64,000 nucleotides of DNA from positions 37,902-101,901 of the forward strand of contig ONNR01000008.1 of NCBI GenBank assembly GCA_900319235.1, read 5' to 3'. Both the position numbers and the translations under genes were made by a program. This DNA is from an uncultured Prevotellaceae bacterium (lineage in GTDB: Bacteria > Bacteroidota > Bacteroidia > Bacteroidales > UBA3663). Shown here piece after piece: positions 42,714 through 58,900 of this stretch. Under the pieces are notes generated by a model. That model saw only the letters and a program-made list of their open reading frames with translations, did no database searches and was not told where the DNA came from. Position 1 is the first letter of the stretch. Each line of letters opens with the position of its first letter.

Positions 42714-42808
42714 TATTTATTTTATCACGAATTAGAGAATTAAAGAATTTTTTAACCTTTCCTTATTATTTTAATTCCATAATTCTCAAATTCGCTAATT
42801 CGTGATAA
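42705..42808. repeat. CACGAATTA-family element as an imperfect inverted pair, embedding the clpC stop
   Basis: Left arm ttatcacgaattagagaattaaagaatt (42722). The right arm aattccataattctcaaattcgctaattcgtgataa (42773) is its reverse complement (14 nt perfect plus extensions). The clpC stop lies in CACGAATTAA at 42705. Confidence 0.8.
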
Positions 42809-42828
42809 GAAAAAAAGTCCCCCTCTTA

Positions 42829-45800
42829 ATGAATCCCCGAAGAAAGGTCCTGACCGTCCTCTTGGCCGTCGTGACCATCTTGACCCAAGCGCAGCAGGCT
42901 ACATCCCTGCAAATCAACGAGATCTGCCCATCGAACATCGATCAATGGGTTGATCCTTCGTTTAATTATGGCGGTTGGGTCGAGCTTTATAATCCCACTT
43001 CCACGGCCGTCAATATCACCGGCTGGTATCTGAGCGACAAGAAGGAAAAGCTGCAGAAGGCCAAGGTCACGCAGACAACCTCCGTGCCCGCCAAGGGCTT
43101 CACAACCCTTTGGTTCGACCATTACAGCAAATGGTCGAAGAAGACCATCGATATGAAGCTCGATTGCGATGGCGGCACGCTCTATCTCAGCGACGCCCAG
43201 GGCAACCTCGTCACTTCGCGCGAATATCCCGAGGCCGTGTCGCGCTGCTCGTGGGCACGTACGTCCGATGGTGGCGACACGTGGAGCTATTGTGCCAATC
43301 CCACCCCAGGCAAGACCAATGCGGGCTGCAAGTTCGCCACCGAGCGTCTTGAAGAACCGGAAATCGACACACCCTCGCAGGTCTTCGGTACGTCAAGCAT
43401 CGCCGTCCACGTCACCATTCCCGAAGGCTGCACTTTGCGCTACACCACCGACGGCAGCGCGCCCACCGAGAAGAACGGCTACAATTCGCTGACGGGCGTC
43501 TTTTCGACCACTGTCACGCGCACGTTCCGCTTCCGTCTCTTCCGCGACGGCTACCTGCCCAGCGCCGTGGCTACGCGAACATTCATCAAGAGCACGCGCG
43601 ACATCGACCTGCCCATCCTCTCCATCACGGGCACGCAGGCCAATTTCTACGGCGACTCGCTGGGCATCTTCGTACAGGGAGTCAACGGACGCCCGGGCAA
43701 CGGACAGAGCTTCAAATGCAATTTCAATATGGATTGGGAGCGTCCCTCGGTGTTCGAATATTTCACGGCCGATGGCAAACTGCTCTTTGAGCAGGAGGCG
43801 GGCATCGAGCGTTGCGGTGGCTGGAGCCGAGCCTGGTCGCCCGCTTCGTTCAAGATCAAGGCCAACAAGCGCTACGAGGGCCAGAAGCACCTCCTCTATC
43901 CTTTCTTCGAGGAGAAACCCTACCTCAAGCACAAGACCGTGCAGATTCGCAATGGTGGCAACGACAACGGTTGTCGCGTGCTGGACGTCATTCTCCAGCA
44001 GATAGCTGCCACCTCGGGCCTCGACATCGACTACCAGGCCTATCAGCCCGTCGCCCATTTCGTCAACGGCGTGTGGAAGGGTGCCATCAATATGCGCGAG
44101 CCCAACAACAAGCACTTCGTCTATTCGAACTACGGCTACGACGAGGACGAGATCGACCAGTTCGAGATGTCGCCCGATTCGGGCTATTGCCAGAAGTGCG
44201 GCACCTACGAGGCGATGCAGGACCTGCTCACCCTTTCTAAGTCGGCTTCCGACGCCAATACCTACAAAGCCATCTGCGACCTCATCGATATGGACGAGTT
44301 CTGCAACTATATGGCCATCGAATTCTACCTGCGCAACAGCGACTGGCCGCAGAACAACCTCAAGGCCTGGCGCCCGCGTCGCGAGGACGGCCGCTTCCGC
44401 TTCGTGCTTTACGACCTCGATGGCTTCGACTGGACAAGTTCGCCGTTCAACGACTTCACCAACAAGCGCATCTATACCTTCAATCGCCTCTATGGCGAAT
44501 CGCAGCAGTACATCACCAAGGAGATCGAGGTGGTCACCATCTTCCTCAATCTGCTCAACAACGAGACCTTCCGCAAGAAGTTCATCGACACGTTCTGCCT
44601 CATTACCTATTCGGTGTTCGAACCTTCGCGTTGTGCCGAAATCTGCGAAAGTGTGGCCAACCGCGTGGCGCACACCCAAGGCCTTTACAACAACGAAAGT
44701 CCTTGGGGCACAGCCAACAACGTGAGGTCGGCGCTCTCGACATCGCGGCAGAACACCCTGATGAATTTGCTCAAAAGCTACAGCCGTATGAAGCTGTCGT
44801 CGCAATCCCCCCGCACGGCAAAGCTTGAGGCGAATATTCCTGAGGCGCGCCTTTCGTTCAACGGCATGCCCATCCCCACCGGCAAGTTCAACGGCAAATA
44901 CTACGCGCCCGTCACCGTCAAGGCCGAAGCCCCGTCGGGCTACGTCTTCACGGGTTGGCGTGTCGCTTCTACCACCAGCAGCGAGCTCTTCCCCACCACG
45001 CAAACCTGGCGCTACTACGACAAGGGTTCGCTCGACGGAATCAACTGGAGTGATGCCGACTACAACGATGGTTCGTGGGCTTCGGGACCTGCTCCGTTGG
45101 GTTACTACGTGGGCGGAAGTCGAGCCTATGGCACCACCATCAGCTACGGATACAACGTCAACAGCAAGTATCCGACCTACTATTTCCGCACGTCGTTCGA
45201 CCTCGCCGAAGCGCCCATGGGCAACGAGACGTTCCGCCTTTCGTTCACCGTCGACGACGGAATGATTGTCTATGTCAACGGCGTTGAGGCCATACGCTAC
45301 AATATGCCCGGTGGCAACGTCACCTACAACACCTACGCCACAACTTACGCCCAGGGCAACCCCGACAGCGGCACCGCCAACCTCAATGCCTCGCTCTTCA
45401 GGCAGGGCACCAACGTCATCGCCGTCGAAGTGCACAACAACTCCGGCTCTTCGACCGATATCTATTGGAGTGCCTCGTTGTCGAAAAACCTGACGTCGGG
45501 CGGAGAACTGGTGTGCAGCGATCCCGAATATGAACTCCCAGCAAGCAGCCGCGACCTCATCGCCTGCTTCGAACCCATCGCTTCTGCCGACACCCCTCTC
45601 CCACCTGTTGTCATCAACGAGGTGAGTGCCGACAATGGCATCTACATCAACGACTTGTGGAAGAAATCCGATTGGATTGAACTCCACAACACCACCAATC
45701 AGGACATCGACCTCGCGGGTATGTATCTCTCCGACAAGGTGGGTAAACCCGACAAGTGGCAGATAGGCGCAGACCTCGCTGAAGATTCCTCCATCTCGAC

Positions 45801-46257
45801 CATCATTCCCGCCCACGGCTACCGCATCATCTGGTGCGACAAGGAGGAGGGCATCCGTGACCTCCACGCCCCCTTCAAGCTCGAAAACGTCGATCAGAGC
45901 CAGGTCATCCTCTCGGCTGCCGATGGCTCGTGGAGCGACACGCTCACCTATTGCGCCCATCTCCCTGCCGAAACCGTCGGGCGCTATCCCGATGCTTCGC
46001 GCAACGTCTATCTGATGACGCGCACCACCATCGAGCGCACCAACCAGCTCACCACCATCGCCGCCACCGTCGAGCAACCTGCCGAGAGTGCCATCCAGCA
46101 GGTACTCTCCGACGACATCCTCGATGACAGCTATTCCATCTTCGACCTCAATGGCCGCCTTGTCCGCGAAGGCCGTGGCTCCCTCACTGAGGACCTTCCC
46201 TCGGGCGTCTATATCGTCCGCAGCAAGGGCTCGGCGTATAAGGTCGTGGTGCCGTGA
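42829..46257 (+). CDS. CotH kinase family protein with two lamin-tail (LTD) domains, Fn3-associated domains and a T9SS C-terminal sorting domain
   Basis: Two LTD signatures (LQINEI...WVELYNPT..ITGWYLSD and VVINEV...WIELHNTT..LAGMYLSD). The central CotH region is homologous to the other two CotH ORFs here. C-terminus IFDLNGRLV...GVYIVRSKGSAYKVVV. Confidence 0.85.
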   Translation: MNPRRKVLTVLLAVVTILTQAQQATSLQINEICPSNIDQWVDPSFNYGGWVELYNPTSTAVNITGWYLSDKKEKLQKAKVTQTTSVPAKGFTTLWFDHYSKWSKKTIDMKLDCDGGTLYLSDAQGNLVTSREYPEAVSRCSWARTSDGGDTWSYCANPTPGKTNAGCKFATERLEEPEIDTPSQVFGTSSIAVHVTIPEGCTLRYTTDGSAPTEKNGYNSLTGVFSTTVTRTFRFRLFRDGYLPSAVATRTFIKSTRDIDLPILSITGTQANFYGDSLGIFVQGVNGRPGNGQSFKCNFNMDWERPSVFEYFTADGKLLFEQEAGIERCGGWSRAWSPASFKIKANKRYEGQKHLLYPFFEEKPYLKHKTVQIRNGGNDNGCRVLDVILQQIAATSGLDIDYQAYQPVAHFVNGVWKGAINMREPNNKHFVYSNYGYDEDEIDQFEMSPDSGYCQKCGTYEAMQDLLTLSKSASDANTYKAICDLIDMDEFCNYMAIEFYLRNSDWPQNNLKAWRPRREDGRFRFVLYDLDGFDWTSSPFNDFTNKRIYTFNRLYGESQQYITKEIEVVTIFLNLLNNETFRKKFIDTFCLITYSVFEPSRCAEICESVANRVAHTQGLYNNESPWGTANNVRSALSTSRQNTLMNLLKSYSRMKLSSQSPRTAKLEANIPEARLSFNGMPIPTGKFNGKYYAPVTVKAEAPSGYVFTGWRVASTTSSELFPTTQTWRYYDKGSLDGINWSDADYNDGSWASGPAPLGYYVGGSRAYGTTISYGYNVNSKYPTYYFRTSFDLAEAPMGNETFRLSFTVDDGMIVYVNGVEAIRYNMPGGNVTYNTYATTYAQGNPDSGTANLNASLFRQGTNVIAVEVHNNSGSSTDIYWSASLSKNLTSGGELVCSDPEYELPASSRDLIACFEPIASADTPLPPVVINEVSADNGIYINDLWKKSDWIELHNTTNQDIDLAGMYLSDKVGKPDKWQIGADLAEDSSISTIIPAHGYRIIWCDKEEGIRDLHAPFKLENVDQSQVILSAADGSWSDTLTYCAHLPAETVGRYPDASRNVYLMTRTTIERTNQLTTIAATVEQPAESAIQQVLSDDILDDSYSIFDLNGRLVREGRGSLTEDLPSGVYIVRSKGSAYKVVVP

Positions 46258-50790: not shown

Positions 50791-52611
50791 TTATCTGATT
50801 TGTATCTTCTTGACCAGAGGGCCCTGGCGCACGATATAGATGCCCGTGGGAAGAGCGTTGAGGTCGGTGCCGAGGGTTTGGCCACTGAGCGAATAGACGC
50901 TGTAGGGGCGGCTGAAGTCGATGTCGTCGGGGTCGGAATCGGAGATGATTGAGATGCTTTCGGGAACATAGGTGTAGCCCAGGCGATTGTCCATCCATTC
51001 GACGCGCTTTCGGATGAAGTCGCGCACATTCTCCACCTCGGCGGCATAACTGCCCCAGATCCTGGGGTTCTGGTGCACAATCTTCTTCATGATGGGCCAA
51101 CGGAGGAAGTTGAGTTCCTGCGACAGGAGGAGCTCCTCCTCCATCGAATCGACGAAGGCGACGAGATGTTCCTGGTCGATGCCATTGTGTCGAGCCTCGC
51201 CCCATATCGCGAGCAGCTGGTCCTTCGTGCTTTCGTTATTGATGATGATCTTATCGACAAAACTGCGCATATTGCCCGCACAGCTTCCTCCCGATCGATA
51301 GACGTAGTCGCTCATATCGTTGGGGTTCCTGATGCGCCCGTCGTTGTTGAAAGCGAGGTCGAAGTCCCAGACGGGACCTGTGTAGATGGTGTCGTTCAGA
51401 CGTTGCTTGTACATGAAGACGCTCCAATAGGTGTCGATGTTGCCCGAGAGTTCGCCCACGAGGAAATGTCGCAGGAAGGTGTTGAGGTCGAGGTAACTGC
51501 TCCAGTTGCTCTCCATCCTGTTGAAGTGATTGCGGATGTAGTTCTTCTGGACGGAGGTGATGCTGTCGCTATCGGGCGACTTGATGGTGACGGGCTTCCA
51601 CTGATTGGAGTAGAAATAGGATGCTTCGCGATCGGCATAAGCATCGATTTCGAAGAAGTAGCCGCCTGTGAGCGCATCGCCGCTATTGTCGCGCGGCGTC
51701 ATCTCCTCGATCTGGACACGATCCTTGTGAACCTGGATGTGGTCGCAAAGCTGGTAACAGCCCTTGTATTCGCCGTTGAGCAGCACATCGACGGCACGGC
51801 CGTAGGGAGTGTAGGGCATGCCCAACCGTCGACTCAATTCGAAGGCCAGCAGGTTGCGCATCAGCGTCTTGTCGCCATAATTGTTGATGAGTGTCCACTT
51901 TTTGGCGTGGGCAGGAGCATCGAGCACGTGCTGCTTCTTTTCGAACTTGATGCGCCAGGGCTTCTTGGGAAAATCGCGCGAAGCATTGCCGCGTTCGCGG
52001 ATGGTGCCGGGTTCGGAGAGCAGGGCATAAGAGCTGTCGCCGATGATGGTGAACTGCGCCTCTATTTCGTGCTCTTTATCGTAGGGAATTACCCCATCGA
52101 GGGTGTGGATGCTGACGGTGGGGAGGTTGGTGATGCGAGTGAGATTGGAATGGTCGCCCATGCCTTTATGGCCATAGAATTCGAGCTCAGCGACTTGAGA
52201 AAAACTGGTAGCCGGTCCTACATAGCGCACATAACGAAAACCTACGGAACAAGTGATCTCAGCATAATTCATCTCCCCCGGTTTGCCCACCTCGCCGACA
52301 CTTCTGATGATGTGAAGGGGCAAGGCATCCATAAAGTCGGGGCTATTGGCGCCTTCGAACACGCCGAGGATCATACGGCTGGGGACGTTGTCGCGCGGCA
52401 TCCACCCTACCCTGGTGATGACGTGACGTTCACCCAGGTCGAGGCCTGCCCAACCGTAGTTGAAGTTCGTGGCAGAGAAGTAAGTGCCAGGATTTCCGTC
52501 GAAAGCCTTGTCGGCGTTGTTGAGTACGGTTCCCGTCAACAGGTCATCTGCAGCCAGCGACACCATGCTGACTGCCCATAGAATGACCAATGATGTATAG
52601 AATCTTAACAT
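50791..52611 (-). CDS. CotH kinase family protein with N-terminal F5/8 type C (discoidin) domain and T9SS sorting domain
   Basis: Discoidin-like N-terminus (AFDGNPGTYF...VAELEFYG). CotH core homologous to 56031..58664. C-terminus VYSLSGQ...GIYIVRQGPLVKKIQIR. Confidence 0.85.
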   Translation of the reverse strand: MLRFYTSLVILWAVSMVSLAADDLLTGTVLNNADKAFDGNPGTYFSATNFNYGWAGLDLGERHVITRVGWMPRDNVPSRMILGVFEGANSPDFMDALPLHIIRSVGEVGKPGEMNYAEITCSVGFRYVRYVGPATSFSQVAELEFYGHKGMGDHSNLTRITNLPTVSIHTLDGVIPYDKEHEIEAQFTIIGDSSYALLSEPGTIRERGNASRDFPKKPWRIKFEKKQHVLDAPAHAKKWTLINNYGDKTLMRNLLAFELSRRLGMPYTPYGRAVDVLLNGEYKGCYQLCDHIQVHKDRVQIEEMTPRDNSGDALTGGYFFEIDAYADREASYFYSNQWKPVTIKSPDSDSITSVQKNYIRNHFNRMESNWSSYLDLNTFLRHFLVGELSGNIDTYWSVFMYKQRLNDTIYTGPVWDFDLAFNNDGRIRNPNDMSDYVYRSGGSCAGNMRSFVDKIIINNESTKDQLLAIWGEARHNGIDQEHLVAFVDSMEEELLLSQELNFLRWPIMKKIVHQNPRIWGSYAAEVENVRDFIRKRVEWMDNRLGYTYVPESISIISDSDPDDIDFSRPYSVYSLSGQTLGTDLNALPTGIYIVRQGPLVKKIQIR

Positions 52612-52868: not shown

Positions 52869-52948
52869 CATAAAGAAAACAGTTGTCAATTACCTCACCC
52901 ACTCTATTTTTTGATAATCCTAATACATATCTAATTCTAATAAACATC

Positions 52949-55567
52949 ATGAAACATCTTTCTACGTTTCTGGCTTTACTTTCGGCATTAACCGTAAATG
53001 TAGCCGTGGCTCAGGAAGTTAGCATCGATGAGGCACAAGGCCGTGCCGTCGATTTCCTGAAGAGCCAGACCGATGGCGCCAAGCGCGTCAAGGGGGCAGA
53101 CGTTGCCCCACATGTTTCGTTGGCCTATACCTCGAAGAGCGAGGACAAGACATGTTTCTACGTCTTCAATGCCGGTGAGGACGAGGGTTTCGTCATCGTC
53201 GGTGGTGACGAGGCTGCGCATGAGATTTTGGGTTATTGTGACCATGGCTCGTTCGATTATGACACTGCTCCTGCCAACTTAAAGTGGTGGCTGAGCCAGT
53301 ACACCGAGCAGATTGCCCATGCCGCAAAGGCTGGGGTTAAGGGTGCACGTAGAGCGAAGGCAGAAACGACGACACGAGCAGAAATAACTCCTTTGATAAG
53401 CACGAAGTGGGATCAAGATGCTCCCTATAATGGTTTGATTCCTAAATACACAAGTGGAAATAATGAATATTCTTTCATCACAGGATGTGTGGCAACGGCT
53501 ATGGCACAAGTGATGAAATACCATCACTTTACCCCTTTTGCTGGTGTTACTATACCAAGCTATAATAGTCTGATTACGTATCCAAACAGTAGCAAGGATG
53601 AAAAGATGGAGATACCAAGTATTACGGTTCCATCTAATTATTCATGGGATGCTATGTTAGATTTGTATCCATCGTCTTACGATCCTCAGAATGCCAATGA
53701 TGTTGCAGTAGCTGAGCTGATGTATCATGCAGGAGCTTCGGTGCTAATGAAGTATGGCACTATGCAAACCGGTGGTTCGAGCGCTAGTTCAGCAAAAATA
53801 CCTGGAGCTCTATCTTCATATTTCGGATACGACAAATCGGCGCACAATGAGTATAGAGGATGCTATTCGGATGAGGTGTGGGAAGACATGGTTTATGCAG
53901 AACTGTCAAATGGTAAGCCTGTACTATATAGCGGAAGTACAATAGAAGGTGCTGGTCATCAATTCATTTGTGACGGTTATAAAGATGTCGGTTATCATAT
54001 CAATTGGGGATGGAGCGGTGCTTATAATGGCTTTTTTCTGTTGACTCCATATAACAACACTCCCGCCTTAACTCCTGACGGTACTGGAAGTGGTGGTGGA
54101 GCTGCTGGATCATCATACGACCAAGGTCAACTGATTACTTTGGGACTGAAACAAAATGCAGGAGGTTCAGAAACTCCACATCTTGTTCAGATCACAGATA
54201 ATTCTACACTCACTACTCCAATGTATATGAAGGTAGGAAATGAACAAGTAAATAATTATACATACAATGTTTCTACCGACAATAGTCAGTGTTATCTTTC
54301 TACTACAATCTATAATATCAGTTGCCTTTCTAGCCAGTTTGACTATGGCGTTAAAGCAGTTAATAAGGAATCTGGCGAGGTAAAATATATACTATCACAA
54401 TATGAGGGTCAAAATTTAAGTGTTGGTAATTACTATAGTAGTCTGGTTAATCTTCATTTTACCCCATCCAACCTTACTGATGGCACATATCAGCTATTTC
54501 CTGCATTCAGAATGTATGGAAGTAGTGATTGGATGGATGTTCAGTTGAATTGTTCTGCTACTATTCCAGAAATAACGATAACAAGAGATGTGCAACCAAG
54601 CACACAACTGATTCAATTGACAAGGAGCCCGGAATTCAATAATGACAACAATCCATATTCCGGAGATCTTGTATTTAATATTTATTTTAGGATTAATGTT
54701 GCGGATGCTGGGAACGATAAAATTCCCTCAGTTTCTTTATATGCTAAAATAGATAAAGAAGATGGAACAAACGTAGCTAATCATACTATCAATTTTTCCA
54801 ATGTTCAACCAAATGCTAATTTAAGTGGTACAGTCAACTTATCAAGTTTGTCAGAATCACTAGTTACCAACAACAAATACACTTTGACATTCTTTTCTGA
54901 TGCAAGTTATACAGAATCACTTGGTGATAATTCTTCCATCGACTTCACTTATCGTGAAGGATTAACTGTATATTACGGCGTAAGTCCTGCTGGATACGGC
55001 ACACTCATCTTGCCATTCAATGCTAAGGTGCCCGAAGGTATGACTCTCTATAGTTGCGATTTGACTGATAATAATAATGCTATTTTATTGTCTCCATTGA
55101 CAACAACTGTTATCGAACGCAACAAGCCCTACATCGTAAAGGCAAATTATGATTCTAATGATCCTAGTCCTTATTCGTTTACAGGCCCCAAGGCAATAGA
55201 TGATGACCATCTATTCGTAGATGGCTTCTTGTGTGGAGCAGTGGCTAACGATGTGCCACTTACCCATAATGATTATATTTTGCAATATAATTCTGAGACT
55301 CAAACCGCTGGATTCTATTTGTACGTCAGCGAAACTGAAAATCGCAAAGCAGCACCTTATCGTGCGTTTTTACGTATTCAGAATCGTAATTTGGCACCTC
55401 CTGTTCTACCTAATGAAGAGCCAGAAAGCATCGAGGAAATACGGATGAACCACAGCATTCCTGCCGGCATCTACTCGCTCGACGGCAAACGCCAATCGGA
55501 GCTGAAGAAGGGTCTGAATGTGATTATCCTCGACGATGGAACTTCTAAAAAAGTATATGTCAAATAA
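52949..55567 (+). CDS. C10-family (streptopain-like) cysteine peptidase with Spi-type propeptide, a long C-terminal extension and a T9SS sorting domain
   Basis: Signal peptide and pro-region VSIDEAQGRAVDFL. Catalytic Cys in TGCVATAMAQVMKYHHF and catalytic His in AGHQFICDGY..YHINWGWSG. C-terminus GIYSLDGKR...KKVYVK. Confidence 0.85.
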   Translation: MKHLSTFLALLSALTVNVAVAQEVSIDEAQGRAVDFLKSQTDGAKRVKGADVAPHVSLAYTSKSEDKTCFYVFNAGEDEGFVIVGGDEAAHEILGYCDHGSFDYDTAPANLKWWLSQYTEQIAHAAKAGVKGARRAKAETTTRAEITPLISTKWDQDAPYNGLIPKYTSGNNEYSFITGCVATAMAQVMKYHHFTPFAGVTIPSYNSLITYPNSSKDEKMEIPSITVPSNYSWDAMLDLYPSSYDPQNANDVAVAELMYHAGASVLMKYGTMQTGGSSASSAKIPGALSSYFGYDKSAHNEYRGCYSDEVWEDMVYAELSNGKPVLYSGSTIEGAGHQFICDGYKDVGYHINWGWSGAYNGFFLLTPYNNTPALTPDGTGSGGGAAGSSYDQGQLITLGLKQNAGGSETPHLVQITDNSTLTTPMYMKVGNEQVNNYTYNVSTDNSQCYLSTTIYNISCLSSQFDYGVKAVNKESGEVKYILSQYEGQNLSVGNYYSSLVNLHFTPSNLTDGTYQLFPAFRMYGSSDWMDVQLNCSATIPEITITRDVQPSTQLIQLTRSPEFNNDNNPYSGDLVFNIYFRINVADAGNDKIPSVSLYAKIDKEDGTNVANHTINFSNVQPNANLSGTVNLSSLSESLVTNNKYTLTFFSDASYTESLGDNSSIDFTYREGLTVYYGVSPAGYGTLILPFNAKVPEGMTLYSCDLTDNNNAILLSPLTTTVIERNKPYIVKANYDSNDPSPYSFTGPKAIDDDHLFVDGFLCGAVANDVPLTHNDYILQYNSETQTAGFYLYVSETENRKAAPYRAFLRIQNRNLAPPVLPNEEPESIEEIRMNHSIPAGIYSLDGKRQSELKKGLNVIILDDGTSKKVYVK

Positions 55568-55585
55568 TCTATAATTTAGAATGTT

Positions 55586-55759
55586 ATGAAAAAGCAATAT
55601 AATACCCCAAAACTTGATGTAGTCAATTTGGAGCTTAATGATATAGTAACTCAATCGAATGGAGGTGAAACATTGGGTGTTTCTGCAACCGGTTATACCT
55701 CAGGAGCTACTCAATGGGGCAAGCGCCGTCCGGACATCTGGGGAGAGGACGAAGACTAA
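55586..55759 (+). CDS. small ORF (57 aa), below the track threshold; paralog of 58692..58853
   Basis: MKKQYNTPKLDVVNLELNDIVTQSNGGETLGVSATGYTSGATQWGKRRPDIWGEDED. Starts 19 nt after the C10 stop and is followed by a terminator. Confidence 0.45.
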   Translation: MKKQYNTPKLDVVNLELNDIVTQSNGGETLGVSATGYTSGATQWGKRRPDIWGEDED

Positions 55760-55782
55760 TTCGAAATAACTACCCTATCAAT

Positions 55783-55817
55783 AAGCCTTGGCCGATTGTG
55801 GTCAAGGCTTTATTTTG
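55783..55817 (+). terminator. rho-independent terminator (copy 1 of a near-identical pair)
   Basis: AAGCCTTGGCC-GATTGT-GGTCAAGGCTT, then TATTTTG. Confidence 0.8.
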
Positions 55818-55926
55818 CGTTCAAAAATTGTTCGACAAACATGGCAAAAATAAAATATAGAAATATTTTAGAGAAACAATAGTGAATTTTTTGGTGTTTG
55901 AATTTGTTTAATTCAGAAAAAAGTTG

Positions 55927-55934
55927 TATTTTTG
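55927..55934 (+). promoter_or_regulatory. -7 box TATTTTTG
   Basis: TAnnTTTG 97 nt upstream of ATG 56031. Confidence 0.45.
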
Positions 55935-56030
55935 CAAAGTTATGTTCGAAAATTCGGAAACTAGCCTATTGTAAAAGGTATCGAATCACAGAATATGGTT
56001 GTAAGTATATTTTATTTTAGAAAGAACTGA

Positions 56031-58664
56031 ATGTTTTTAGAACTACTATCTAATGTGCTGAAACGGTTTTGTTTCTGTTTGATATTTATGAGCTCAGCCA
56101 CTGCGATGTCTTTGGCTGAAGATGTTGTATTGTCTGGCACGGTGCTCAATGGTTCAAATAATGCTTTTGACCAAAACGCAAGCACATACTATTCGGGCAA
56201 TTCCAAGAACTATGCATGGGCAGGTTTGGATTTGGGAGACCCGTGCATTATTACTAAGGTGGGATGGATGCCTCGTAGCGGTTATGTTAGTCGTATGCAA
56301 CTTGGCGTCTTTGAAGGAGCTAACGACCCGAACTTTATGGATGCCTTGCCTCTCACGATTATTCGTGTTGCTGGACAAGCGGGAAAAATGAACTATGCCG
56401 AAGTCTCCTGTTCTCGTGGTTTTCGCTATGTGCGCTATGTCGGTCCTTCGGGTAGTTTTGGAAATGTCGCAGAACTAGAATTCTATGGGCATCCAGGCGA
56501 GGGTGATATGTCCAATCTCTATCGTATCACCAATCTGCCTACTATCAGCCTCCATACTCTCAATAATGAGCTTCCCGTAGATAAGGAAAATGATGTGAAT
56601 GTACAAATTATCATCATTGGTGATAACGTCAGTCAATATCTGATTGAACCAGGATCATTCCGTGAGCGAGGCAATGTGTCGCGTTATTTTGACAAGAAAC
56701 CCTGGCGAATAAAGTTTGAGAGCAAGCAACGCGTGCTTGATGCACCTGCCAAGGCCAAGAAATGGACCCTTATCCCTAACTATAGTGACAAGACCTTGAT
56801 GCGTAACCTTTTAGCCTTCGAGCTAAGTCGATGTGTCGGTATGCCTTATACTCCTTATGGACGTTCCGTAGATGTTCTTGTGAATGGCGAGTACAAAGGT
56901 AATTATCAGTTATGTGATCAGATTCAGGTCCATAAGAAACGTGTCAATATCGAGGAGATGACACCTCGTGATGACTCTGGAGATGCCCTTACTGGTGGAT
57001 ATCTGTTTGAGATTGATGCTTATGCTGACGATGAGAAGTCCTTTTTTTATTCTGAGAAGAATACTCCTGTGACCATCAAGTCGCCTGATGATGACAGTAT
57101 CACCGACAATCAGAGGAATTATATCGAGACTCATTTTAACAAATTGGAGAACGATTGGCGCAAATATCTTGACCTGAATACATTCCTGCGACACTTTCTT
57201 GTTGGAGAGCTATCGGGCAATACTGACACCTATTGGAGCGTCTACATGTACAAGCATAGGATGAATGATACCATCTATACAGGCCCCGTATGGGATTTCG
57301 ACATAGCTTTTCAAAACGATTATCGTACCTACCCCATCAATGACAAGAGCGATTTTATTTATCGCTCGGGAGGAAGTTGTGCGGGCAACATGCTGAATTT
57401 TGTAGATGATATCGTCATTAACAATGATAGCGCATCTCAACGACTTGTTTCCATTTGGGAAGAAGCTCGTCATAAAGTATTGGATGAAGAACATGTTGTT
57501 GCATATATAGATTCACTTGAGGAGGAAATGCAGCAATCGCAGGAGCTTAATTTCAAGCGCTGGCCTATTTTGAAAGAGAGGGTACAAATGAATCCAATTG
57601 TCTGGGGCAGTTATGAAGCCGAGGTCGGAAATGTGCGCGACTTTGTCGTCAATCGTATTAAATGGATGGACAATCGCCTGGGTGCTGTGATTGACCCGGC
57701 ACTATTTGTTGATCAGCCTTTTGTCAACAATGGCAATAATGCATACGAAGATGATCTGGTGATGCACTTCAATCTCAAGAGTGAATCCCGGTATGAGTCA
57801 AATGCCCATGTATATTATTCGATCAATGCCGATCAGTTGGCATGGAATGGTCGAAATGATTATGCTTCGATTCCTGTTGGCGGAGAATTGACGGGAGAAT
57901 TGGACCTTGCTCAGTCTTTTGCAGACATCAAGAATGACTTGACGCCAAATCAGAGCTACACGGTCTATTTCTATACCGATAAGAACCGGAACAAGCCCTA
58001 CAACTATCCTTCGGCCACCTTTACCTATCGTTCGAAACTGACGGTTGACTATAGTGTTGAATCTATGGGATATGGCACGCTGATACTTCCATTTGACCAC
58101 GAACTTCCCGAAGGCTGGAAAGTGTATGGTTGTTCGGGCGTAGATGAAAATGGCGTGCTGACCTTGGACGAAGATGTCAGCATCAGGCGCAATGTGCCAT
58201 ACATCATACAGGCCACTCCAGGCACTACCTACCAGTTTGTGGGCCCTAAGGCCATCGATGCCGATAAACCTACATTTACCGAAGGTGTGTTGGTCGGAGT
58301 TGTTGCCGACAACGTCCCGCTCGTTGCAGGAACAGACTACATCATGCAGGATCAGGCTGGCAGGGTCGCATTCTATAAATACACGGGCACTCCCTCGACC
58401 GACCCATTGGAGAATGACAGCAATAATAATCGGCTTGCTACACCTTTCCGTGCTTATCTGAGGCTCAATAATTCAGCCAATGCCAAGTTATTCTTGCCTA
58501 ATCATATTGCTGGCGAGACTGAGGGTATCGAGGAAATTGGCAACGAAAATGCCCGTCGTGCCGGCTTCTACTCCATCGACGGCAAGCGACATGAATCTCT
58601 CCAGAAGGGCTTTAACCTAATCATCAGCGAAGATGGCTCGGTTCAAAAAGTTTTCGTCAAATAA
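56031..58664 (+). CDS. CotH kinase family protein with N-terminal discoidin domain, a C-terminal module shared with the C10 peptidase, and a T9SS sorting domain
   Basis: Strongly similar by eye to 50791..52611 over the discoidin and CotH regions. The last ~300 aa align with the C-terminus of 52949..55567. Confidence 0.85.
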   Translation: MFLELLSNVLKRFCFCLIFMSSATAMSLAEDVVLSGTVLNGSNNAFDQNASTYYSGNSKNYAWAGLDLGDPCIITKVGWMPRSGYVSRMQLGVFEGANDPNFMDALPLTIIRVAGQAGKMNYAEVSCSRGFRYVRYVGPSGSFGNVAELEFYGHPGEGDMSNLYRITNLPTISLHTLNNELPVDKENDVNVQIIIIGDNVSQYLIEPGSFRERGNVSRYFDKKPWRIKFESKQRVLDAPAKAKKWTLIPNYSDKTLMRNLLAFELSRCVGMPYTPYGRSVDVLVNGEYKGNYQLCDQIQVHKKRVNIEEMTPRDDSGDALTGGYLFEIDAYADDEKSFFYSEKNTPVTIKSPDDDSITDNQRNYIETHFNKLENDWRKYLDLNTFLRHFLVGELSGNTDTYWSVYMYKHRMNDTIYTGPVWDFDIAFQNDYRTYPINDKSDFIYRSGGSCAGNMLNFVDDIVINNDSASQRLVSIWEEARHKVLDEEHVVAYIDSLEEEMQQSQELNFKRWPILKERVQMNPIVWGSYEAEVGNVRDFVVNRIKWMDNRLGAVIDPALFVDQPFVNNGNNAYEDDLVMHFNLKSESRYESNAHVYYSINADQLAWNGRNDYASIPVGGELTGELDLAQSFADIKNDLTPNQSYTVYFYTDKNRNKPYNYPSATFTYRSKLTVDYSVESMGYGTLILPFDHELPEGWKVYGCSGVDENGVLTLDEDVSIRRNVPYIIQATPGTTYQFVGPKAIDADKPTFTEGVLVGVVADNVPLVAGTDYIMQDQAGRVAFYKYTGTPSTDPLENDSNNNRLATPFRAYLRLNNSANAKLFLPNHIAGETEGIEEIGNENARRAGFYSIDGKRHESLQKGFNLIISEDGSVQKVFVK

Positions 58665-58691
58665 TTTTATGATTTTACAACATTATTCGAT

Positions 58692-58853
58692 ATGAAAAAG
58701 TCATATGATTCTCCGATATTTCGGGTTCGGTTTGTAAAAGTGTCTGACGTGATAGTCACCTCCGACCCACAACTTACTGACGATCCTTCTGACGACGGCA
58801 AGCAGTTGGCAAAGCCTACGGGTCGTTCTAATGATTGGGAAAGTTACGAGTAA
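58692..58853 (+). CDS. small ORF (53 aa), below the track threshold; paralog of 55586..55759
   Basis: MKKSYDSPIFRVRFVKVSDVIVTSDPQLTDDPSDDGKQLAKPTGRSNDWESYE. Starts 28 nt after the CotH stop and is followed by the paired terminator. Confidence 0.45.
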   Translation: MKKSYDSPIFRVRFVKVSDVIVTSDPQLTDDPSDDGKQLAKPTGRSNDWESYE

Positions 58854-58867
58854 TCTTTGGATTAGAA

Positions 58868-58900
58868 AAGCCTTGGCCAATGTGGTCAAGGCTTTATTTT
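58868..58900 (+). terminator. rho-independent terminator (copy 2); overlaps the 3' end of the convergent AraC-type gene
   Basis: AAGCCTTGGCC-AATGT-GGTCAAGGCTT, then TATTTTC. Confidence 0.8.

Follow-up and report, generated by a model that had tools for sequence, protein, structure and literature searches.

Two neighbouring genes in a rumen or gut Bacteroidales genome, one for a C10 cysteine protease and one for a CotH-family protein (CotH-3), have a common C-terminal extension of about 315 residues, which we call the module. How did two unrelated heads come to end in the same way, and what does the module do for them? The window, that is, the whole stretch of DNA that was analysed, comprises 64,000 nt from an uncultured Prevotellaceae bacterium (contig ONNR01000008.1, positions 37,902 to 101,901) and had been the subject of an original prediction made from its letters. 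Our analysis suggests that the shared region is probably a self-contained C-terminal extension of cargo of a type IX secretion system (T9SS), that it passed to a CotH gene from a C10(+Big_2) gene (C10 with or without Big_2 repeats) together with a small open reading frame (sORF) and a hairpin, and that it most probably serves as a pedestal for export, cleavage and anchoring.

Homology, predicted fold and tail of the module

A BLASTP comparison of the whole proteins gives a single colinear alignment between C10 residues 583-894 and CotH-3 residues 563-877 (121/331 identities, 37%; E 2e-47). The original prediction had claimed such colinearity for the last ~320 residues of the two proteins, at 54590-55564 and about 57700-58661; the claim is borne out and the coordinates are accurate, only the start of the C10 ORF being revised. 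There are no further copies of the module in the whole window when either module is used as a tblastn query. The genes and the parts of the module are as follows, with C10 residues numbered in the 894-residue frame.

52949..55567, + strand: C10 cysteine peptidase gene, 872 aa from the ATG at 52949; the reading frame is open from the TTG at 52883 (894 aa)
54629..54952, + strand: N sub-domain of the C10 module, aa 583-690, an immunoglobulin (Ig)-like variable beta-sandwich; AlphaFold2 predicted local distance difference test (pLDDT) 88-97; matched by a C10-only hidden Markov model (HMM), E 9.4e-18
54953..55381, + strand: central 'pre-CTD' beta-sandwich of the C10 module (CTD, C-terminal domain), aa 691-833; AlphaFold2 pLDDT mostly >90
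55382..55426, + strand: linker of the C10 module, aa 834-848, disordered, ending at the predicted PorU site E848 / S849-I850
55427..55564, + strand: putative short T9SS CTD of C10, aa 849-894, 46 aa, with motifs B, D and E
56031..58664, + strand: CotH-3 gene, 877 aa; Pfam CotH, E 1.9e-42
57699..58025, + strand: N sub-domain of the CotH-3 module, aa 557-665; C10-only HMM, E 1.8e-28
58026..58469, + strand: central pre-CTD beta-sandwich of the CotH-3 module, aa 666-813, by alignment to C10
58470..58661, + strand: linker (aa 814-831) and putative short CTD (aa 832-877, 46 aa) of CotH-3, with predicted cleavage at E831 / G832-I833
50791..52611, - strand: CotH-2 gene, 606 aa, the module-less comparator, in which the CotH domain runs straight into a different, GxY-type CTD

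When the module is divided into sub-regions, BLAST aligns the central domains with 41% identity over 154 aa (E 3e-29) and the linker and tail with 50-53% (E ~1e-15; the CTDs are 53% identical), whereas the N sub-domains show 24% identity over 96 aa (E 0.009). An HMM was built from 56 C10-only sequences, leaving out CotH and window sequences. It matches CotH-3 residues 559-666 from end to end (E 1.8e-28), which shows that the weak N sub-domain match is true homology. Together with the sub-region scores, this shows that the similarity is not restricted to the secretion tail; a restriction to the ~70-aa T9SS CTD is what the original prediction had said would overturn it. Chance or compositional similarity, or a likeness limited to the CTD, could appeal to the weak pairwise score of the N sub-domain taken alone; set against the overall E value, that of the central domain and the independent HMM match, this explanation is already refuted and its probability is negligible. 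CotH-2 and CotH-3 share 68% identity over 550 aa; their homology ends at CotH-3 residue 556, about 6 aa ahead of the start of the module homology.

The identity of the heads is clear. The C10 protein consists of a signal peptide, an Inhibitor_I69 prodomain, Peptidase_C10, an unassigned middle region and the module. It is a peptidase of the C10 (streptopain) family with an I69 prodomain, exceeding both Pfam gathering scores (Peptidase_C10, E 5.7e-53 and 180.5 bits against a cut-off of 26; Inhibitor_I69, E 1.2e-24 and 87.1 bits against 25). CotH-3 has a signal peptide, an F5/8-type-C-like N-terminus, the CotH domain and the module; both it and CotH-2 belong to the CotH kinase family (146.4 and 152.6 bits; gathering cut-off 23.8). 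On inspection, the N-termini MKHLSTFLALLSALTVNVAVAQE and MFLELLSNVLKRFCFCLIFMSSATAMSLAED resemble signal peptides. C10 homologues are 866-872 aa long, and the module of one with 872 aa (P0019; P and L numbers are our own for proteins and loci) is 99% identical. These lengths, with the typical signal peptide, indicate that the real C10 start is likely to be the ATG at 52949 and not the annotated TTG at 52883.

An AlphaFold2 model built on an 11-sequence alignment was mediocre (pLDDT 71), but with 121 sequences pLDDT rose to 89, with a predicted TM-score of 0.77. This model, for which the original prediction had called, shows a pair of beta-sandwiches followed by a linker that is disordered and a tail of three strands. 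The N sub-domain sandwich takes up module residues ~7-120, and in C10 it has the conserved entry motif P-x-F-N-N-D-N-N-x-Y-x-x-D. The second sandwich, of ~140 aa (module residues 121-262), contains the motifs GYGTLILPF, PYIV (NKPYIV in C10), Y-x-L-Q (Y-I-L-Q in C10) and PYRAFL. Only module residues 276-287 form a run with pLDDT below 50; they take in the end of the linker and the first residues of the annotated CTD and so lie across the predicted cleavage site. The three terminal strands are at module residues 292-294, 307-312 and 318-323. The possibility that the two sandwiches are internal duplicates was considered and rejected (hhalign probability 0.5%).

The original prediction could not name the family, and indeed no curated family spans the module. 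There is no Pfam or NCBIfam match to it at E <= 1, nor at E <= 0.1 on seven diverse relatives. No sequence profile of Big_2, Ig-like, carbohydrate-binding module (CBM), lectin or any other curated family in Pfam, NCBIfam or a PDB profile search matches either sandwich, and when the sequences of the whole PDB were searched with a profile, the final 50 residues alone were matched, other hits being spurious.

The tails close the ORFs of both proteins (C10, 46 aa, SIEEIRMNHSIPAGIYSLDGKRQSELKKGLNVIILDDGTSKKVYVK; CotH-3, 46 aa, GIEEIGNENARRAGFYSIDGKRHESLQKGFNLIISEDGSVQKVFVK). Ye et al. (2025, Open Biol, PMC11969387) report that cargo proteins of Prevotella intermedia carry either long, seven-strand or short CTDs. 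As the passages on short CTDs describe them, these measure 40-51 aa in 22 seed proteins (43-55 aa over the full predicted set of 48), form a single three-strand sheet and have their cleavage motif in a flexible linker with a strongly conserved Ile at +2. Motif B is defined there as Y, an invariant G and a basic residue, and motif D, also with an invariant G, as GxY, or GxN in one subgroup, followed by Ile; 1-6 aa lie between B and D, and motif E has an invariant basic residue. The cleavage sites of five short CTDs were mapped experimentally in that study, and C-terminal glycosylation was found on six cargo proteins, short and long types pooled.

The window tails resemble the P. intermedia short CTDs, as those passages give them, in every sequence and structural feature: they are at the extreme C-terminus, 46 aa long, with the +2 Ile in a flexible linker, a three-strand sheet, Y..G and a basic residue in motif B, GxN followed by Ile or Val in motif D, and a basic motif E. 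In C10 these are IYSLDGKR (B), a 6-aa gap, KGLNVI (D, GxN subtype) and KKVYVK (E). Module residues I280, G298, G307 and K320 are at least 90% conserved, i.e. near-invariant, in the 121-sequence alignment, and I280, the glycines and K320 are so in the 11-sequence alignment too; the four most conserved tail positions among the 121 sequences are the residues by which those passages define short CTDs. Judged by sequence and predicted fold, the C10 and CotH-3 tails are short T9SS CTDs in the sense of Ye et al. The module thus includes the CTD, which is of the 46-aa, three-strand type, and does not sit between the head and a ~70-aa CTD as originally predicted. In contrast to the P. intermedia case as reported in those passages, the window organism is a rumen or gut Bacteroidales and its cleavage and anchoring are predicted from sequence. 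Neither the conserved pre-CTD sandwich nor the downstream small ORF is described in the same passages.

Two results weigh against this assignment. The curated models of Bacteroidota C-terminal sorting signals (Pfam Por_Secre_tail, and NCBIfam TIGR04183, type A, and TIGR04131, type B) give no match at E <= 1 on C10, CotH-3 or CotH-2. Additionally, there are no T9SS machinery genes among the 21 window ORFs that were scanned (housekeeping genes and the third CotH gene). Because the CTD models are silent, the assignment depends on the motifs, the position of the tail, its predicted fold and a single paper on another Prevotella species.

As had been predicted, CotH-2 passes straight from its CotH domain to a T9SS tail, but that tail (…VYSLSGQTLGTDLNALPTGIYIVRQGPLVKKIQIR) is a different CTD from that of the module. 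It is of the GxY type, has an 11-aa gap between motifs B and D and shows no BLAST similarity to the module CTD. There is a third CotH gene in the window (42802-46257, + strand, 1151 aa, with Lamin-tail, CHB_HEX_C and CotH domains); its tail resembles the CTD of CotH-2 and not that of the module. A beta-N-acetylhexosaminidase chain in the PDB (8bbl_A, residues 849-901) has the same GxN-type short CTD, …QQGLNVVLFADGTAQKVFMK / …VYNAQGMRLNGMQQGLNVVLFADGTAQKVFMK, with no preceding beta-sandwich, so the short tail is an independent unit.

Distribution and origin of the module

The module is a composite of a variable Ig-like sandwich, a central sandwich, a linker and a short CTD, and it forms three nested units whose distributions differ widely. 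An exhaustive profile search of 1.84 billion cluster representatives (50%-identity clusters) yielded at least 6,363 proteins at E <= 1e-3, of which 2,204 reached E <= 1e-10. Most matches span the central domain and tail only, and among the 143 relatives listed, 128 have a match that stops no more than 12 aa short of the C-terminus. The full three-part module is present on C10 peptidases with an I69 prodomain, some of which have Big_2 repeats and some not, and on a small number of CotH proteins, and the variable N sub-domain is confined to C10 and long-CotH proteins. The central domain and CTD, on the other hand, also stand behind Big_2, BspA-type leucine-rich repeats (LRR_5), LRR_8, CBM_4_9, RicinB, DUF5013 and many unassigned regions, and there is a large stand-alone family of ~380 aa with little beyond an N-terminal domain, the central domain and the CTD. 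The host genomes are those of rumen and gut Bacteroidales, including Prevotella and Paraprevotella metagenome-assembled genomes. This search with the module alone, which had been proposed as a check, supports the earlier claim of a portable unit on unrelated heads. It also bears on the possibility, raised at the same time, that the module is a well-characterised domain ubiquitous in T9SS cargo: its central domain is ubiquitous in cargo of the Prevotellaceae type, but it is not well characterised.

Several lines of evidence bear on where the CotH module came from. In a neighbour-joining tree of 62 three-part modules, 52 are on C10 heads and the five CotH modules are nested deep among those of C10(+Big_2) proteins, with 91% bootstrap for a core clade of four CotH modules. 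Only seven of the 120 closest relatives of the CotH-3 head are long (863-881 aa); the remaining 113 are short (579-638 aa). The CotH-3 module is 59% identical to that of the C10+Big_2 protein P0126 and 53% to several others (53-59%, P0125 included). The neighbouring C10 gene was considered as a recent donor and rejected, its module being 36-39% identical. The data largely show that the three-part extension belongs primarily to C10 peptidases and that one CotH lineage gained it from a C10(+Big_2) gene. Since the CTD of CotH-2-type proteins is of another kind, what was replaced is the entire 3' end of the CotH gene. The original prediction had left it open whether the module was inserted into or lost from one CotH lineage and had asked for module and head phylogenies to be compared; of its two options the evidence favours gain, and the gain took the form of replacement, not of insertion beside a retained tail.

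There are two points against this account. Deep nodes of the module tree have low bootstrap values, and P0126 (C10+Big_2) and P0015 intermix with the CotH modules, which are therefore not strictly monophyletic. Moreover, the long-form CotH heads form two separate groups in the head tree, so that a second transfer or conversion of a head is needed. Two such groups could also arise by multiple losses if the long form were ancestral and the CotH-2-type proteins had lost the module. We consider this very improbable: the 113 short forms among the 120 nearest relatives are spread over several deep clades, the CotH modules lie deep within a C10-dominated radiation, simple deletion cannot produce the different CTD type of the short forms, and identity is decoupled between module and head (100% against 72%, and 90% against 67%).

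Gain from a C10(+Big_2) gene would have taken place inside a variable array. There is a recurrent frame in related genomes, with a CotH-2-type gene on the - strand, a variable + strand array of C10, C10+Big_2 and long-CotH genes, and then an AraC gene on the - strand. A GH3 gene lies beyond AraC in the window and in L030/L031 and L034/L035, but not in L032/L033. The GC content at third codon positions (GC3) is 0.26-0.52 in the island of C10, CotH-3 and small ORFs (52949-58853), as against 0.72-0.78 in the flanking CotH-2, GH3, ClpB and CotH-1 genes; it is 0.73 in CotH-2 and 0.44 in the CotH-3 head. The related locus L030 shows the same contrast between a low-GC3 array and its flanks. Because the GC3 of the array departs from that of its flanks, CotH-3 is not a fresh duplicate of CotH-2 made within this genome.

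The array is still recombining. The CotH-3 allele of a sibling strain (P0267; L034/L035, 7001-9646), in flanks that are 96% identical at the nucleotide level, is a mosaic. Over the first 40 columns of the alignment it is 97% identical to CotH-3. Starting at about residue 525, identity climbs from 90% to 100%, and the last 322 aa, in which the whole module lies, are identical. The interior of its head is 47-87% identical to CotH-3 and nearer to CotH-2-type proteins. Recent conversion of this interior by the adjacent CotH-2 gene was considered and rejected (mostly 70-95% amino acid identity in 40-column windows, 80% nucleotide identity). The tandem long-CotH proteins P0010 and P0011 in L030 are 100% identical in the N sub-domain and most of the central domain, 67% in the heads and 57-87% in the linker and CTD. 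Breakpoints therefore fall in the CotH head near residue 525 and within the module. They lie inside coding homology, which argues for ordinary homologous recombination or gene conversion and not for a dedicated mechanism.

The downstream small ORF and hairpin

The likeness between the C10 and CotH-3 units continues past their stop codons, with the following features.

55586..55759, + strand: sORF-A, 57 aa, 18 nt past the C10 stop codon; recognized by the family HMM
55783..55810, + strand: terminator-like hairpin 1, a 12-bp stem and then a T run, closing the unit of C10 and sORF-A
58692..58853, + strand: sORF-B, 53 aa, 27 nt past the CotH-3 stop codon; third-position differences
58867..58895, + strand: terminator-like hairpin 2, closing the unit of CotH-3 and sORF-B and overlapping the 3' end and stop of the convergent AraC gene

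The small ORFs belong to a family of 45-60 aa that begins MKKxxYxxPxhxh...S, continues with an acidic stretch, has a Trp near the end and is without a signal peptide; the sources annotate its members as 'hypothetical protein'. Between sORF-B and homologues, the differences at codon positions one, two and three number 4/5/22 and 3/3/22, and this concentration at third positions shows that the small ORF is coding. There is no Pfam match to the family, and the only NCBIfam match is an 11-residue one to a lasso leader (17 bits; cut-off 33). As a known RNA, the hairpin and small-ORF region has no match in Rfam except a chance sub-threshold one to rli42 (25 bits against 80).

A family HMM finds the small ORF in the window and in 15 other loci (L001-L007, L013, L020, L024 and L029-L033), mostly 18-280 nt past a gene with a module and short CTD. 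Small ORFs follow module genes in L001-L007, L013 and L030-L033 and never follow CotH-2-type genes; members of the family are also located behind short-CTD cargo genes in L034 and L035. The exact sequence of sORF-A is on 21 contigs. Type B stands behind long-CotH genes and behind those C10+Big_2 genes whose modules are 57-58% identical to that of CotH-3, and type A behind other C10 genes. Similar small ORFs are found behind about 10 of 21 more distant short-CTD genes. In L020, L024 and L029, distant homologues are also located behind genes that end in dockerin-like repeats.

The hairpin stems are 12-13 bp (AAGCCTTGGCC..GGTCAAGGCTT and a T run), ~28 nt are near-identical between the two units, and the same sequence recurs after small ORFs in five other loci (L001, L003, L004, L030 and L031). 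Taken together, the data largely show, at the level of the sequence, that the exchanged unit exceeds the protein module and includes the conserved small ORF and the near-identical hairpin. The CotH gene would have had its own CTD replaced by the 3' end of a C10(+Big_2) gene, with small ORF and hairpin carried along, and the replacement would have occurred within the variable, low-GC3 array.

A stronger proposal is that module, small ORF and hairpin form a dedicated cassette moved by a specific mechanism, with the hairpin as recombination site and the small ORF as partner of the module, its product helping, for example, in secretion or folding, acting as a regulator or being a modified peptide. 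The ~28 nt of near-identity in hairpins behind proteins that are just 37% identical, and their recurrence in other genomes, would fit this, as would the presence of the small ORF after module genes in 15 of about 16 evaluable cases and never after CotH-2-type genes, its relatives behind more distant short-CTD genes, and the weak lasso-leader-like match, YxxPxL, at its N-terminus. However, a hairpin with a T run is a plain intrinsic terminator, there is no recombinase or integrase gene in the locus, and the breakpoints lie in coding homology, which is the usual pattern where homologous recombination or gene conversion is at work. In L033, sORF-B is upstream and not downstream of the CotH gene, and the lasso-leader match is far under threshold. 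We therefore consider the dedicated cassette, with these roles for the small protein, quite improbable.

In a related proposal, somewhat less improbable but still unlikely, the pre-CTD sandwich, the short CTD, a conserved, cytoplasmic-looking protein of 45-60 aa and the hairpin would form a complete cassette in which the small protein is a general partner, not recognized before, of short-CTD cargo in the Prevotellaceae. If so, the small protein may, for instance, couple cargo expression, folding or secretion, or be a modified peptide, and it would work with the cargo through the pre-CTD domain, which is uncurated.

Possible role of the module and relation to known systems

In the reading that we prefer, in which the module is an extension for secretion and anchoring, both proteins would be exported by the Sec pathway through their N-terminal signal peptides. 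The short CTD would dock on PorV and the translocon, as may be supposed from PMC4804311 and from the passages of PMC11969387 used above. The sortase PorU would then cut ahead of [G/S]-I in the linker and join the new C-terminus to a surface glycan, as the same passages would suggest. The conserved central sandwich would become a membrane-proximal pedestal, and the variable sandwich may be a spacer or an exposed face, the protease or CotH head being held off the cell surface. There is a patch of ~150 nt in the C10 N sub-domain (54722-54870) for which no alignment to sibling strain L034 is obtained, despite 96% identity in the DNA on either side, and this suggests that the N sub-domain has an exposed, fast-evolving face.

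The original prediction had spoken of a portable targeting or adhesion unit. Portability stands, but the targeting or adhesion role does not follow, spacing and anchoring fitting the evidence at least equally well. One or both sandwiches might nevertheless bind a ligand (a plant or host glycan, the surface of another cell or the cell's own lipopolysaccharide), with the CTD merely adjacent. In a few proteins (P0140, P0146 and P0166) the central domain is internal or doubled, away from the CTD, which argues for a role beyond secretion and so weighs against our preferred reading. In addition, the central domain stands beside adhesin-type heads (BspA LRRs, lectins and CBMs), the stand-alone family of ~380 aa has an N-terminal domain besides the central domain and CTD, and the N sub-domain is hypervariable between sibling strains, as expected of an exposed interaction face.

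In a Foldseek search of the PDB, all matches were to tandem Ig-like sandwiches of a generic kind (E values between 1e-5 and 1e-3, query TM-score <= 0.26), a result that does not help the secretion and anchoring reading. The Wzt O-antigen-binding domain is among the fold matches of ~130 aligned columns, which would suit adhesion; however, such matches are generic, with low TM-scores, and lectin, CBM and adhesin families have no sequence score in Pfam or NCBIfam. The central domain is also highly conserved over thousands of cargo proteins with varied heads, which is better explained by a shared housekeeping role, and its conserved positions are mostly strand-core hydrophobics. We therefore regard a role in adhesion or targeting as possible but distinctly on the unlikely side. 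P0140, a C10+Big_2 protein, has its module at residues 653-971, followed by BspA-type LRRs and a type I dockerin in place of the CTD.

The exchange itself is real, but it is fairly ordinary module swapping among surface-secreted proteins, a phenomenon of a known kind. What is new is the uncurated and very abundant pre-CTD domain, the transfer across classes from a protease to a CotH protein, and the small ORF and hairpin that are linked to the module. In rumen and gut Prevotellaceae, a very large domain family, with the 50%-identity clusters counted above, precedes a short T9SS signal and has escaped curation, and as the standard CTD models miss these cargo proteins, the T9SS secretomes of abundant gut and rumen bacteria are probably under-counted. 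The locus also provides a dated and directional example of a secretion-and-anchoring extension passing from a C10 peptidase to a CotH protein within an actively recombining array, and the small-ORF partner and conserved hairpin that travel with it offer an experimental handle.

Specialists in T9SS already know from KLIKK proteases and gingipains that C-terminal extensions can be shared. In the KLIKK proteases of Tannerella forsythia (Ksiazek et al., 2015, PMC4404884) the C-terminal extension has three parts: region A, which is conserved, a variable region, and a CTD of 86 aa that ends in KLIKK. As here, unrelated catalytic domains have a common extension in which a conserved entry motif leads to a variable region and then to a CTD that is conserved, and the genes are clustered in arrays in which a small ORF accompanies each. 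The KLIKK heads, however, are metallo- and serine proteases only, whereas the two heads in the window are those of a cysteine protease and of a CotH protein, which is not a protease. The window tails, at 46 aa and ending in KVYVK and KVFVK, are not of the KLIKK type, whose CTD is of the long kind. The KLIKK small ORFs are upstream, 360-550 bp long, predicted lipoproteins and mutually unrelated, in contrast with those of the window, which are downstream, ~160 bp, without a signal peptide and mutually homologous. The likeness is thus one of architecture and locus organization, with no sequence similarity detected, though no direct search for it was made.

In the RgpB gingipain of Porphyromonas gingivalis an Ig-superfamily (IgSF) domain is followed by a disordered linker and then by the CTD; a role as spacer or insulator has been proposed for this domain, and the length of the linker governs anchoring (de Diego et al., 2016, PMC4804311). 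The window proteins have the same order of parts: the catalytic head is followed by an Ig-like domain, by a disordered linker with the PorU site, which is a predicted one here, and by the CTD. The RgpB IgSF domain has seven strands and ~85 aa, and its CTD is of the seven-strand long type, in contrast with the two larger sandwiches (~108 and 143 aa) and three-strand CTD of the window proteins, and no sequence relationship was found. The IgSF-CTD tandem of RgpB is a functional analogy for the module, and in that sense the pedestal proposed here for a C10 protease and a CotH protein would have its counterpart in the gingipains.

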